A DNA stretch of 64,000 nucleotides from a virus (IMGVR_UViG_3300033066_001278:1-64000); one strand, 5' to 3'; positions 1 through 29,776 are shown, counted from the first letter of the stretch. Notes: generated by a model not told the origin, from the letters alone. Made by a program: numbers and translations.

Positions 1-195
1 GGTGTTAAATCATTAGTTCCAGTTCAAATGAGTATATCTCATCTATTAGATAAACTTATTGAAGGAATTCAATCTGGCGCATCATATCAAGGTGTTAATG
101 ATATTAATAAATTACAACATGAACCAGTGTTTGTTAGATTGTCACATGGAGGAACTGTTGAAACATCAATTCATGATGTTAAAGTTATAGGATAA
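1..195 (+). CDS. IMP dehydrogenase / GMP reductase family, C-terminal part (5' truncated by window)
   Basis: Frame 1 is open from base 1: GVKSLVPVQMSISHLLDKLIEGIQSGASYQGVNDINKLQHEPVFVRLSHGGTVETSIHDVKVIG*. This matches the GuaB/GuaC C-terminal pattern (GV..VP...G..SG..Y.G...I..LQ....FV..S..G..E...HDV). Confidence 0.8.
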   Translation, partial: GVKSLVPVQMSISHLLDKLIEGIQSGASYQGVNDINKLQHEPVFVRLSHGGTVETSIHDVKVIG

Positions 196-566
196 TGAAA
201 AAAGATAAAGTAAGATGTGCATATTGTAATACTCTTCATTATATTGAAGAAGGTGTTTATGATAAAAAATTTTGGGTCTTTTGTAGCAAAAAAAATATTT
301 ATGCTAGAGAGGTATGTATAAGATATATAATTTCTAATTATAAACCTTTATATATACAATGGGAATTAAAACCAAATATTTTGGGAGATTTTGATTGTGT
401 AAATATATCTTGGAACAAGAATGGTTTTGCCTATATAAAAAAAACATATTTAAATGACACCATGTATTATTACGCATGCAATGTGCATGTAGATAAATTA
501 TCTAAAATTAAAAACGCAAAATATATCTTAACTCAAGTTAAGAAACAATTATTATTACAGGATTAA
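195..566 (+). CDS. Hypothetical protein (N-terminal CxxC; C-terminal KKQLLLQD tag)
   Basis: ORF track; start abuts the upstream stop; no family recognised. Confidence 0.7.
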   Translation: MKKDKVRCAYCNTLHYIEEGVYDKKFWVFCSKKNIYAREVCIRYIISNYKPLYIQWELKPNILGDFDCVNISWNKNGFAYIKKTYLNDTMYYYACNVHVDKLSKIKNAKYILTQVKKQLLLQD

Positions 567-602
567 ATGGAACAAGATTATTTAGATTTATTGAAAAACT
601 AA
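567..602 (+). pseudogene. Remnant of a thymidylate synthase N-terminus (MEQDYLDLLKN*)
   Basis: ATG directly follows the upstream stop. The peptide matches the start of the intact ThyA (EEQNYLNLLKE), with about 25/29 nt identity to 640-668. Confidence 0.65.
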
Positions 603-614
603 AATATATTTGGT

Positions 615-622
615 GTTATATA
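615..622 (+). promoter_or_regulatory. GTTATATA motif (putative phage promoter element) upstream of thyA
   Basis: Exact copy of an octamer recurring in intergenic regions; 8 nt before the ATG. Confidence 0.45.
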
Positions 623-630
623 AGGAATAA

Positions 631-1494
631 ATGAATCAAGAAGAACAAAATTATTTAAATTTATTAAAAGAAATTATTGACATTGGCGATAAACAAATGG
701 ATCGTACTGGTATTGGTACATTAAGTATATTTAGTGGCAAATTAAAATTCTCATTAGAGAATAATACTATACCTCTAATAACAACCAAAAAGATGTTTTT
801 TAGAGGTATAGTTGAAGAATTATTATTTTTTATTAGAGGAGAGACTAATACAAAACTTCTAGAAGAAAAAGGTGTTAATATTTGGAAGGGTAATACTTCA
901 AGAGAATTCTTAGATAGTAGAGGCTTAACCAATTTGCCAGAAGGCCACATGGGCAAAGGTTATGGATTTCAATGGCGTAATTTTAATGGAGATTATTTAA
1001 TTAATAATGGAGTGGATCAATTAAAAAATGTTATTGATACAATTAAAAATAATCCTTATGATCGTAGAATAATTATTAATGCGTGGAATCCATCTCAATT
1101 AAATGAAGTTGCGCTACCACCATGTCACACCTCAGTACAATTTTATGTAAATTCAAAAAAAGAATTATCATCTCAATTTATAATGCGTTCAAGTGACGCT
1201 TACCTTGGTGTGGTTTATAACTTTTGTAGTTATGCGCTATTAACTCATATTATTGCAAAAGTTTGTAATTTGAAGCCTAAAGAAGTTATATTTATTGGTG
1301 GCAACATTCATGTATATCTAAATCATTTAGAGCAAGTTAAAGAACAAATTTCTCGTACTCCATATAATTTTCCAACAATATCAATAAATAAAGAATTGCA
1401 TTCTTTAGAAGATATTGAATCTTTAAAATTTGAAGATTTTAAATTAGAAAATTATAAATATTACCCAGCTATTAAAGCCAATATGGCTATCTAA
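631..1494 (+). CDS. thyA: Thymidylate synthase (ThyA)
   Basis: DRTGIGT, YGFQWR, DQL, RRIIINAWNP, ALPPCH (catalytic Cys), RSSD, N..SYALL, HVYLNH, and C-terminal AIKANMAI. Confidence 0.98.
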   Translation: MNQEEQNYLNLLKEIIDIGDKQMDRTGIGTLSIFSGKLKFSLENNTIPLITTKKMFFRGIVEELLFFIRGETNTKLLEEKGVNIWKGNTSREFLDSRGLTNLPEGHMGKGYGFQWRNFNGDYLINNGVDQLKNVIDTIKNNPYDRRIIINAWNPSQLNEVALPPCHTSVQFYVNSKKELSSQFIMRSSDAYLGVVYNFCSYALLTHIIAKVCNLKPKEVIFIGGNIHVYLNHLEQVKEQISRTPYNFPTISINKELHSLEDIESLKFEDFKLENYKYYPAIKANMAI

Positions 1495-1518
1495 TTTACT
1501 AAATAGAGCTTGATGATT

Positions 1519-27436: not shown

Positions 27437-27477
27437 ACTTCTCTCTTTTGAGAGATATATCTTTATATTGTGTTGTT

Positions 27478-28029
27478 TTAGCTATTAAGCATCATTAGTT
27501 TTTTATAATAATCTGGCATTTCAAGAAAATTGGCCTCTTCAACATTTGACATATAAGCAACAATTCTCACTAGGATTTCTTCAATTAATTTGGGACTAAA
27601 CACTAAACCCAATTCAAATCTAATATCATGTAATATGATATTCATTTTATCATTATTAAATTTAGGATGATAAATGGATTGAACTTCTTCATAGCATTCA
27701 GGCATTTCCCAGAATGAATAATTTTCATATACTTCATCTATTGTAATAGAATAAACAAAATTAACATTATTAATGTAGCAAACATTAATATATAATCTAT
27801 GATAAGAAGATTTAATAATATCTATAGAATTACAATGTTGAATTTTGCCTTTTAAAATATCATTATGATCTCTTAAATTAAATGAAGCAAAATGATCTTT
27901 ATTATTACTAGATTTAAATAATGCTAAAACCATATCATTTGAAAATTTTGAAAAATCTAGATTATTTTTAATAAGAAACTTTTGAAATTTCTTAGAAGGC
28001 TGAAATTCTATTAGTTTATTATTTTCCAT
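27478..28029 (-). CDS. Hypothetical protein (YYKKLMMLNS tag)
   Basis: ORF track. Confidence 0.7.
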   Translation of the reverse strand: MENNKLIEFQPSKKFQKFLIKNNLDFSKFSNDMVLALFKSSNNKDHFASFNLRDHNDILKGKIQHCNSIDIIKSSYHRLYINVCYINNVNFVYSITIDEVYENYSFWEMPECYEEVQSIYHPKFNNDKMNIILHDIRFELGLVFSPKLIEEILVRIVAYMSNVEEANFLEMPDYYKKLMMLNS

Positions 28030-28481
28030 TAGCTAACCATTAATAACTTTCTAAAATATTTTAGAGACTTAGGAATTTTTGTCCAAGCTACAGCACCATT
28101 TTTAGATTTATAAAAAGTTTTAATAAATTGTGCGGATATTTCTTTCTCTACAATTTCAGCATTTTCTTTCCCAAATATTTTAATTAATTGTGGTTTAAAA
28201 TTAATTAAATAAGCTTTCCCATAATATGATTTTCGTGTTCCTATTTGTAAATCATATTGTACATTTATATTTGCATTATTATATTTTATATTATCAAAAT
28301 ATAATCTAACATATATTGTCCCAATACCATATTTCTTAGGAATTTTATTTTTCCCATTTATTATTGGTAACAAACAATAATCTTTAATATCTGTCAATAA
28401 ACGACTTTCTGCATGTTTTAAACTAACATTATTTTCTTTGAGCCATTTTTTAAATTCATCTGTAAATTGAATAATTTTCAT
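28029..28481 (-). CDS. Hypothetical protein (YFRKLLMVS tag)
   Basis: ORF track. Confidence 0.7.
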   Translation of the reverse strand: MKIIQFTDEFKKWLKENNVSLKHAESRLLTDIKDYCLLPIINGKNKIPKKYGIGTIYVRLYFDNIKYNNANINVQYDLQIGTRKSYYGKAYLINFKPQLIKIFGKENAEIVEKEISAQFIKTFYKSKNGAVAWTKIPKSLKYFRKLLMVS

Positions 28482-28482
28482 A

Positions 28483-29118
28483 TTATCCTAATAGTAAAAA
28501 GTACTTTTTATAACGTTGAGGTATTTTAGTAGATTTGGTTATCCTAAACTCTTTAATAATTTTCTTAAATACCCTTCCTTCAAATTTTTTTATTTCTTTT
28601 TCAGAAAATCCTTTATTTTCTAAATCTTTAGAGAAATCTAATATTGAAACAAGCCTACCACCATCAGTTTTGGCGCAAATAGTTGTTCCTTTGATTTCAT
28701 ATATAAAATCATCATGAGATTCATAAAATAAATCTTTGCCTTTTATGGCAGCAATTGTAAAATCAATATGAAGTTCTGTGGGTTGTTTATAAACATATAC
28801 AAGAGAACTTTTAAAGTTCCATTCATTTTTATCAAAACCTTCTATTATTAGATAATCATTTAATAATTTTTCTATATTTTCATCAGTCGCTTTAACGTCA
28901 TTTTCTTCAAGAAAATTCTTAATTTTATCTCTATTCATTTTAAGAATTTCTTTAGTGGAAAGCGTTGTTTTAATTTTGGCTAAATCATTTTGATACTCAT
29001 TTAATTCAAGTGTTAAAGATTTTATTTCTTTTTGAATATCTTTAATTGTTCCTTCAATTTCTTTACGCTCATCTTCAAAATCACTGGCCATATCTTTTTC
29101 ATATTGAGTGTATTTCAT
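28483..29118 (-). CDS. Hypothetical protein, N-terminal coiled coil (YKKYFLLLG tag)
   Basis: ORF track; SD AAGGA. Confidence 0.7.
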   Translation of the reverse strand: MKYTQYEKDMASDFEDERKEIEGTIKDIQKEIKSLTLELNEYQNDLAKIKTTLSTKEILKMNRDKIKNFLEENDVKATDENIEKLLNDYLIIEGFDKNEWNFKSSLVYVYKQPTELHIDFTIAAIKGKDLFYESHDDFIYEIKGTTICAKTDGGRLVSILDFSKDLENKGFSEKEIKKFEGRVFKKIIKEFRITKSTKIPQRYKKYFLLLG

Positions 29119-29131
29119 TTTTTTTCCTTAA

Positions 29132-29776
29132 TCATAATAGTAAAAAGTATTTTTTCATATACTCTGGATATTTAACTTTTTTGGGCAAATTGCTAAAATC
29201 TATTGATTTTACTATTCTTTTTTCAAAATTTTGAATTTGTTTTTCTGTAAACTTTAAATCTCTTAACTTTTTTCTAAAATCAGAAATTTCTGTATTTTTA
29301 CCAGCCCTAGTTGAACTTAAAATAGGCACAGTATATTGTATAAATACTTTTGAATGTTTATCACTAAATAAATTTATTATTAAATAACCATAATTATCAT
29401 ACATAATAATATCAGTAGTATATTTATCTTTTGTAATATCTAATTTTGTAGCTTCTACAGAATAATTAACTGATTTTCTAGATAAATAATATAAAAATGC
29501 TGGTAAAAATTCAGAATCACAACCAAAATAATTAAAAATTTCTGTATATTTTTTTACTTCAGAATTATATTTTTTATCTATTTCTTTTAAATCTTTTTTT
29601 ATTTTGGCTTGATATACGGGATCTGTTATTTCAGATATTGATTTTTTAATATCTTTAATATTATTAATATAATATTCAGCTTCTTTTAATTGTTCTTTTA
29701 AATAAGAAAGTTTCCTTTTTGATTTAAAGAGTAATTTTTCTTTTGTTTCTAATAAATCTTGTAATTGTTTAGACAT
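29132..29776 (-). CDS. Hypothetical protein, N-terminal coiled coil (MKKYFLLL tag)
   Basis: The track start at 29809 falls at the edge of the terminator loop; MSKQL at 29776 with AGGGA SD is likelier. Confidence 0.7.
   Translation of the reverse strand: MSKQLQDLLETKEKLLFKSKRKLSYLKEQLKEAEYYINNIKDIKKSISEITDPVYQAKIKKDLKEIDKKYNSEVKKYTEIFNYFGCDSEFLPAFLYYLSRKSVNYSVEATKLDITKDKYTTDIIMYDNYGYLIINLFSDKHSKVFIQYTVPILSSTRAGKNTEISDFRKKLRDLKFTEKQIQNFEKRIVKSIDFSNLPKKVKYPEYMKKYFLLL

Follow-up and report, generated by a model that had tools for sequence, protein, structure and literature searches.

A C-terminal peptide shared by dissimilar small proteins of a tubulin-encoding megaphage and its relatives

Ten genes with a common C-terminal tail

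The viral stretch IMGVR_UViG_3300033066_001278:1-64000, hereafter the window, comprises the first 64 kb (64,000 nucleotides) of an 82,048-bp viral contig with a G+C content of ~28%, which CheckV estimates at ~19% of a genome. Ten proteins encoded in the window, here called carriers, share a short basic and hydrophobic C-terminal peptide (the tail) on mostly dissimilar bodies. The tails may be summarized by the consensus [Y/F]-K-K-h-h-[L/M]-h, where h is a hydrophobic residue, and the offset of this motif from the stop codon varies between zero and two residues. A gene for a TubZ/PhuZ-like tubulin (29837-31165, minus strand; Pfam Tubulin and TubZ-like_C) heads an operon with four of the carriers. 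The phage is a member of a widespread clade of uncultured tubulin-encoding megaphages, because this tubulin has more than 1,000 homologues, at ~55-62% identity, on contigs of up to 480 kb.

Two carriers are encoded on the plus strand near the start of the window. The first (195-566, 123 residues) has an N-terminal CxxC motif and ends in VKKQLLLQD, and the second (3038-3556, 172 residues) ends in YKKLLMLK, with an N-terminal part that looks heptad-like by eye and a subsequent region that looks rich in strands. Their orthologues in a close relative (G006, described below) are 80% and 85% identical in the body, respectively, and 100% identical over the last ten residues in both cases. Four more carriers are encoded on the minus strand between the genes for a DnaB-like helicase and a sigma factor. 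The carrier that adjoins the sigma factor gene (20256-20882) and lies directly upstream of it (20891-21181, 96 residues) ends in FKKHLMLI (orthologue body 78%, tail 90% identical). The other three are each 82 residues long. The carrier at 21475-21723 ends in YKKLIMLQE (orthologue body 90%, tail 100%) and has a TTG start as called, its true start being uncertain. The remaining two are paralogues (phmmer E = 4e-12; 35% identity in the alignment), ending in YKKLLLTQ (22105-22353) and, just downstream of the DnaB-like helicase gene, in LKKLILIQ (22350-22598). Two small open reading frames (ORFs) for FmdB-like zinc-ribbon proteins (21278-21472 and 21899-22081) are interleaved with these carriers; the former ends in GGGWSSSGYHK and the latter has another ending, and FmdB-like counterparts ending in GGGWAKDNYS occupy the same position in most related loci.

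The four carriers after the tubulin gene are in tandem on the minus strand. The first of them (29132-29809, 225 residues) ends in MKKYFLLL and is a paralogue of the next (28483-29118, 211 residues), which ends in YKKYFLLLG and has just 3 relatives among 1.84 billion representatives. The carrier at 28029-28481 (150 residues) ends in FRKLLMVS and has just 3 homologues among 5.8 billion proteins; its 65%-identical orthologue (P0123) retains KIPKSLKWFRKLLMVS. The last of the four (27478-28029, 183 residues) ends in YKKLMMLNS (orthologue body 88%, tail 90%), and this tail is unaltered in a 97%-identical strain variant (L104), in which substitutions fall in the bodies and the tail core is intact. 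On the minus strand, directly after the tubulin stop codon, a hairpin with an 11-bp stem (29793-29818) takes in both the ribosome-binding site (AAAGGAG) and the start codon (ATG) of the first carrier gene, and could be a terminator or a structure that masks the ribosome-binding site. A scan of 19.5-31.5 kb for sigma-70 promoters and terminators gave no timing information.

Three further ORFs come close to this set. A possible additional carrier (24002-24280, minus strand, 92 residues), encoded between the DnaB-like and DnaC-like genes and not included in the ten, ends in RKLKDFLKL, which resembles the main tail type of the clade (KLKAF-x); its orthologue in G006 ends in HKLKDFLKL. A 60-residue ORF (9313-9495, minus strand) has LKKLLLS eight residues before the stop, identically in G006, and was not counted. 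Outside the window, a 157-residue ORF (contig positions 72703-73176, plus strand), which lies within the structural module on the strand opposite to its neighbours, ends in QKLLLTMK, a tail variant in which Q replaces the first K and which is 100% conserved in G006.

The motif exceeds chance and is maintained as a peptide

An earlier reading of the window, here called the original prediction, had listed ten ORFs with this kind of C-terminus, and all ten are present with the endings it gave. A regular expression derived from the ten tails, [KR]K.{1,2}[LIMF][LM][LIMVT], required to end zero to two residues from the stop, matches 10 of the 69 ORFs of the 82-kb contig, and the motif occurs in just three more places among the 26,452 encoded residues (10 of 13 occurrences being C-terminal). 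None of 155 out-of-frame ORFs ends with it. Shuffling of whole proteins or of their last 30 residues gave a mean of 0.05-0.07 matches (maximum 2), and 0.08 matches resulted when just the last 12 residues of the ten carriers, which are rich in K and L, were shuffled. The motif stands at the end of 2 of 1,758 ORFs in 80 loci from related phages, several of which are equally AT-rich (Fisher p = 2e-13). The unchanged expression, applied to the separate relative G006:C1, found 18 C-terminal matches among 22 occurrences, at least eight of them in genes without a counterpart in the window contig. Chance or composition as the origin of the motif is ruled out by the shuffles, the out-of-frame ORFs, and the related loci.

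Selection acts on the peptide and not on a DNA element, because synonymous codons vary within the tails: leucine is encoded by TTA, CTA, CTT, and TTG, and lysine by AAA and AAG. A DNA-level element such as a promoter, a terminator, or a repeat at gene ends is also ruled out, as the synonymous codons vary and follow the usage of the genome. The central claim of the original prediction, a selected and portable C-terminal tag on otherwise dissimilar accessory proteins, is borne out by these results. The comparison with shuffled controls that it proposed (10 of 69 ORFs against ~0.05 expected) indicates that the tag is not a product of AT bias, and its statement that no recognizable enzyme or structural protein ends with the motif holds for the contig.

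Conservation of the tails in a close relative

The closest informative relative is G006:C1, a 145-kb contig binned in a metagenome-assembled genome labelled “uncultured Gammaproteobacteria,” which was reached via the 65%-identical homologue of the 150-residue carrier and is syntenic with the window. All ten window carriers have orthologues in G006, with bodies 49-91% identical and the last ten residues 90-100% identical. G006:C1 reaches past the end of the window and has further arrays of carriers, five genes at 10.5-12.5 kb and ~15 genes at 118-128 kb, and in total G006 holds at least 13 carriers beyond the ten orthologues. With these sequences added, the consensus is sharper and reads [Y/F/L]-x-K-K-h-h-[M/L]-h-x-stop.

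The last 16 kb of G006:C1 (129000-145430; L112-L113) contain short, scrambled ORFs only, in contrast to the long and ordered ORFs of the phage part. This segment could be a ribosomal RNA operon or an assembly chimera, and the junction, if real, could point to the host.

Lineage-specific flavours of the tail across the clade

The tubulin-gene loci of other clade members lack the motif of the window, yet have tails of their own on tandem small ORFs. In the complete 447,763-bp genome G001, ~76 of 761 ORFs (median length ~100 residues) end in [K/N]-[L/M]-K-[A/S]-F-h-stop, and the same flavour (x-L-K-A-F-h) is found on at least 10 ORFs of the 101-kb fragment G008. The element [LM]K[ASV]F occurs 73 times in the whole G001 proteome, and in 58 of these cases it is followed by exactly one residue and the stop; the F is present in at least 90% of the G001 tails. 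The 120-kb fragment G007 has 17 ORFs of 197 that end in K-[E/K/Q]-x-[I/V]-F-[K/E]. The complete genome G003 (481 kb) has two flavours, with the KLKAF type on 14 ORFs and an E-K-h-K-x-Y-L-L-F-S type on 20. No C-terminal class is over-represented in G004, a third complete genome (473 kb).

The flavours can be aligned as Y-K-K-L-K-A-F-L (G001), E-K-L-K-L-Y-L-L-F-S (G003), and E-K-Y-K-K-L-L-M-L-K (window), and the common core is roughly aromatic-x-K-L-x-x-(F/L)-x-stop. They are versions of one tag, because the same HRxDGPA-repeat body bears a KLKAFW tail in G001 and a KKLCCLL tail in G006. The flavour is uniform within a genome and differs among lineages, with G003 as the genome with two; there, at 404000-417000 (L170), the second flavour lies on ~20 tandem genes after a conserved N-[IV]-[ST]-P-x-N-[IV] segment, and the two flavours stand side by side. 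The tag of the window is a lineage flavour of a clade-wide tail, with which as many as one gene in ten ends in related 450-kb phages. The original prediction had called it specific to this phage, which does not hold as stated, since it is one flavour of a tail common to the large clade of tubulin-encoding megaphages.

One fast-evolving family or many bodies

One explanation for the shared tail is that the carriers are a single, very fast-evolving multigene family in which the tag is merely the best-conserved C-terminal core helix and has no addressing function. The arrangement of the genes is in line with this explanation, as there are tandem arrays (four carriers after the tubulin gene, four between the DnaB-like and sigma factor genes, ~15 at 118-128 kb of G006, and ~20 at 404-417 kb of G003), most carriers are 75-130 residues long, and the window contains two pairs of paralogues. 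Within sub-groups, the 15-20 residues upstream of the tail are also conserved, and by eye the four tubulin-adjacent proteins have an F-S-x-K-x-x-E-E-I helix followed by a Pro-containing linker.

Comparisons of the bodies point the other way. The original prediction had noted a single paralogue pair, and there are in fact two (22105/22350 and 28483/29132); its further statement that the tagged proteins show no other similarity agrees with the phmmer and hhalign searches, which found nothing beyond these pairs. In hhalign comparisons among the window families, no pair exceeded 20% probability, with or without the tail and with the G006 orthologues added. When the tails are removed from the 76 carriers of G001, 56 sequence clusters result (one each of 11, 8, 3, and 2 members, and 52 singletons). 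No Pfam family was found among the 75 G001 carriers scanned, and the ten window carriers, including the one at 195-566, matched no Pfam or PHROG family. A search of the carriers against the ESM Atlas was uninformative, and sequence and fold searches against the PDB gave no match. Nothing was found by megablast against phage records or by the first scans of viral contigs.

Several body types can be distinguished. One consists of W-Y-x-x-G-x-x-H-R-x-D-G-P-A repeats in variable number, likely of beta-hairpin type, and 8 of its 16 members match Pfam DUF6745; a second is marked by CxxC motifs at the start of several carriers; and a third, the 28483/29132 family, is predicted to combine a coiled coil with an alpha/beta domain. 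An AlphaFold2 (AF2) model of this third family, built on 5 sequences, has a mean confidence (pLDDT) of 79.8 and shows a 45-residue N-terminal helix, a five-strand sheet, and further helices, with no PDB fold match beyond the long helix. In the 28483 carrier, the model places a coil of ~14 residues (191-204) before a short helix (205-208) inside the tail. It is the sole confident model, as that of the 22105 family (pLDDT 50) is unreliable. The structural comparison by which the original prediction would have recognized one common fold thus stands on one confident model, while the sequence features suggest different body types. Carrier lengths range from 51 to 348 residues, and a structural helix would not need to stay zero to two residues from the stop in every member. 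We consider the single-family explanation unlikely.

Genomic context and physical character of the tail

The original prediction offered four roles for the tag, namely packaging into the capsid, import into a compartment of the phage (in view of the encoded tubulin), a membrane anchor, and a ClpXP/Lon-type degron, and the context or the chemistry of the tails weakens some of these and proves none.

A packaging or address signal would direct the carriers, in the manner of encapsulin cargo, into a capsid that ejects them together with the DNA, or into another phage-built compartment. One short terminal peptide on many unrelated cargoes is the standard design of a sorting signal, as in the cargo-loading peptides of encapsulins and the capsid-targeting sequence of phage T4, both of which serve unrelated cargoes of an HK97-fold shell; moreover, the head of a 450-kb phage has room for cargo, and the near-match QKLLLTMK lies inside the structural module. 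However, all ten window carriers are encoded in the thyA, replication, sigma factor, and tubulin operons, and none at 31-64 kb among the virion genes, so the carriers are not encoded together with the shell, and the T4 signal differs further in being N-terminal and cleaved. A compartment built by the tubulin is at odds with G004, which has the same tubulin (locus L056) and counterparts of 193 G001 ORFs, yet lacks the tails. A chimallin-type shell was not seen either, no search aimed at one having been made. Delivery into a capsid or compartment therefore has only a slim chance of being the function.

The carriers are soluble proteins, because none of 109 carriers has a transmembrane-like segment, compared to 66 of 613 other small ORFs (11%). 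Over their last 12 residues the tails carry a net charge of about +2; they often follow a Pro-containing linker and are predicted to be helical. These properties would suit a membrane-targeting amphipathic helix that brings soluble small proteins to the cytoplasmic side of the cell membrane, as the short basic-hydrophobic C-terminal helices of MinD and FtsA do for their soluble proteins: the site is C-terminal, the pattern is hydrophobic-basic-hydrophobic (Y-Y-K-K-L-M-M-L), and the preceding Pro could cap a helix of 10-13 residues. The helical hydrophobic moment (muH) of the tails, taken over the last 11 or 18 residues, nevertheless does not exceed the values for the remaining C-termini of these genomes, which counts against a lipid-binding helix. 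The median over the last 11 residues is 0.258 for G001 tails against 0.299 for the others and 0.367 against 0.297 in G006, where the difference is not significant, as is also the case in G000. Four successive hydrophobic residues leave no clean amphipathic face, and the position-by-position conservation (the invariant K-K in the window and the F in G001) is not required by lipid and is atypical of lipid-binding helices; the switches of flavour between lineages are likewise not explained. The chance that the tail is a membrane helix is accordingly small.

A C-terminal degron, by which ClpXP, ClpAP, Lon, FtsH, or a phage ClpP1P2 with an unfoldase would remove the carriers at a set time of infection, also has features in its favour. 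The motif is C-terminal and hydrophobic with basic residues ahead, as in the ssrA and MuA signals for ClpX and the ClpX-binding tail of SspB; the MuA-type signal has basic residues followed by A-I at the end. Two genuine ClpP subunits are encoded in tandem by each of the four complete relatives (E = 1e-46 to 1e-50, with prohead-protease models scoring far worse), and the operons that contain the carriers are of the replication type, in which takeover proteins with a short life would be expected. In G001, the ClpP1-ClpP2 genes are followed by a 463-residue ORF with overlapping stop and start codons and no Pfam or NCBIfam family (221802-224369; L092:1802-4369), and a PAN/FtsH-like AAA ATPase, with a homologue in G003, is encoded ~7 kb downstream of the pair.

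The ends of the tails do not resemble those of LAA-type tags, which have two to three non-polar last residues with a free carboxylate. The window tails finish in QD, K, I, QE, TQ, IQ, NS, VS, G, and L, and those of G007 in K or E. These mostly polar or charged ends, together with the variable offset from the stop, weigh against an LAA-type degron or a strictly carboxylate-anchored ligand. Furthermore, G004 keeps ClpP1P2 yet has no tails, the ClpX zinc-binding domain is missing from the phages, and a degron would leave unaccounted for why the flavour changes between related phages and is uniform within each. Regulated turnover thus appears quite improbable as the general explanation.

A docking peptide as the proposed function

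We favour, at a probability of about 0.5, the reading that a single protein partner recognizes the tail as a docking peptide, carried on a diversifying library of small proteins. This reading best accounts for the position-specific conservation, the confinement to the C-terminus, the uniformity within genomes combined with switches between lineages, the diverse soluble bodies, and the presence or absence of the tails as a whole class. The strength of the position-specific conservation, such as that of the F in G001, fits a protein pocket better than lipid. According to this reading, the tail would be a portable C-terminal peptide of about 10-13 residues, probably forming a short helix. The variable bodies, as fast-diversifying small soluble accessory proteins, would differ in their targets or in their tasks, and the constant tail would link every one of them to one common protein partner (“variable head, constant handle”). 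We infer both the partner and the outcome of docking from these patterns, and within the docking reading we consider a role in recruitment or as an adaptor more likely than packaging or turnover alone.

Several observations weigh against a docking peptide. No partner was found: DnaN, gp45, PCNA, Hsp70, the ClpX zinc domain, and 20S/HslV are absent from the four complete relatives, in which PDZ gave a sub-threshold match only. The ClpP1P2 pair was considered as the partner and rejected, as it is also present in the tail-less G004, and so is the tubulin; the tails have no specific link to either of them. Subtraction by phyletic pattern, retaining what G001 and G003 have and G004 lacks, left 99 candidates, none of which resembles a peptide receptor; six of them are duplicated in the two-flavour G003, among them an RNA ligase, an ADP-ribosylglycohydrolase, weak 2H-phosphoesterase-like and HNH-like matches, and one protein without a Pfam match. 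The frequent tandem arrays of similarly sized carriers would also fit a single fast-diverging family, and the tail of a small carrier may be no more than an extension of the final helix of its fold, the sole model of such a protein being unreliable.

Known clamp-binding peptides offer one parallel to the proposed docking. The bacterial clamp is bound through QL[SD]LF or QLxLxL motifs, and the C-terminal tails of T4 gp43, gp33, and gp55 bind gp45. Like the megaphage tails, these peptides are short and hydrophobic, occur at or close to the C-terminus of unrelated proteins, and are read by one hub, and K-L-L-M-L of the window fits x-L-x-[LM]-[LF]. The motif itself differs, with K instead of Q at position 1 in the window, Ala at position 4 in G001, where Leu is needed, and Glu at position 2 in G007. 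In addition, Pfam models found no clamp gene (DnaN, gp45, or PCNA) in the four complete relatives, and the megaphage carriers are ORFans, numbering 30-76 per genome, rather than replication enzymes.

A second parallel is provided by the ankyrin/PRANC proteins of poxviruses and the cellular F-box and SOCS-box adaptors, which are multigene accessory sets with a variable target-binding part and a constant C-terminal module that connects to one machine. The carriers show the same layout, a variable N-terminal part and a constant C-terminal module in multigene arrays, but the likeness is one of design only: the ten window and 75 G001 carriers have no Pfam match that would indicate kinship in sequence or fold, the constant part of the megaphage proteins is just ~10-13 residues long, and bacteria have no ubiquitin system. 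A speculative version of the docking reading, to which we give a low probability, would set dozens of fast-evolving “heads” against host factors (defence systems or takeover targets), with one handle leading into one phage-controlled machine, for example the phage's own ClpP1P2-based protease. With this protease as the machine, the system would parallel, in a bacterial virus, the F-box/PRANC adaptor arsenals of giant eukaryotic viruses.

Every sequence-defined test of membership in a known system that was run on the tails failed, and a literature search did not turn up any account of this tag. That several proteins can share a terminal peptide read by a single partner is an established principle, seen in degrons, clamp-binding tails, and cargo-loading peptides. 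A tag borne by about a tenth of the genes of 450-kb phages, on proteins without a known family, would place a large part of megaphage “dark matter” in a single functional class. The tail peptide would offer a single experimental handle for finding the hub of these proteins, and the changes of flavour among lineages offer a natural co-variation test for it. The shared tail may represent a general, unrecognized design of large-phage accessory proteomes.

Other features of the contig

Besides the carriers and the tubulin, the contig encodes ThyA with an HNH endonuclease, a DEDDh exonuclease, an M24 peptidase, and PhoH, as well as an intein-containing ribonucleotide reductase, a sigma-70-like factor, and DnaB-like, DnaC-like, and UvsW-like proteins. 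From ~31 kb on, it encodes very large virion-type proteins, and the virion genes span 31-82 kb.

The region between the two plus-strand carriers (567-3026) contains an intact thyA (631-1494), an HNH homing endonuclease gene (1551-2849), and a short ORF (2889-3026) that ends in PAIKADMAI, a copy of the ThyA C-terminus. The corresponding region of G006 has a full-length thyA with the same PAIKADMAI end and no endonuclease (111330-112167, split into two ORFs by the ORF caller), which suggests that a cassette of thyA plus endonuclease was inserted into a resident thyA.

The large subunit of the ribonucleotide reductase (15735-20208) is encoded by two overlapping ORFs, each with intein and LAGLIDADG domains, and the G006 counterpart of the second part is a single ORF of 967 residues. 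The sequence GTTATATA is found at 615, 7009, 10993, 11590, 31183, and 32991 of the window. Its overall frequency is at chance level, and six of seven copies are intergenic and lie within roughly 25 nucleotides upstream of gene starts, those of thyA and the tubulin gene among them.

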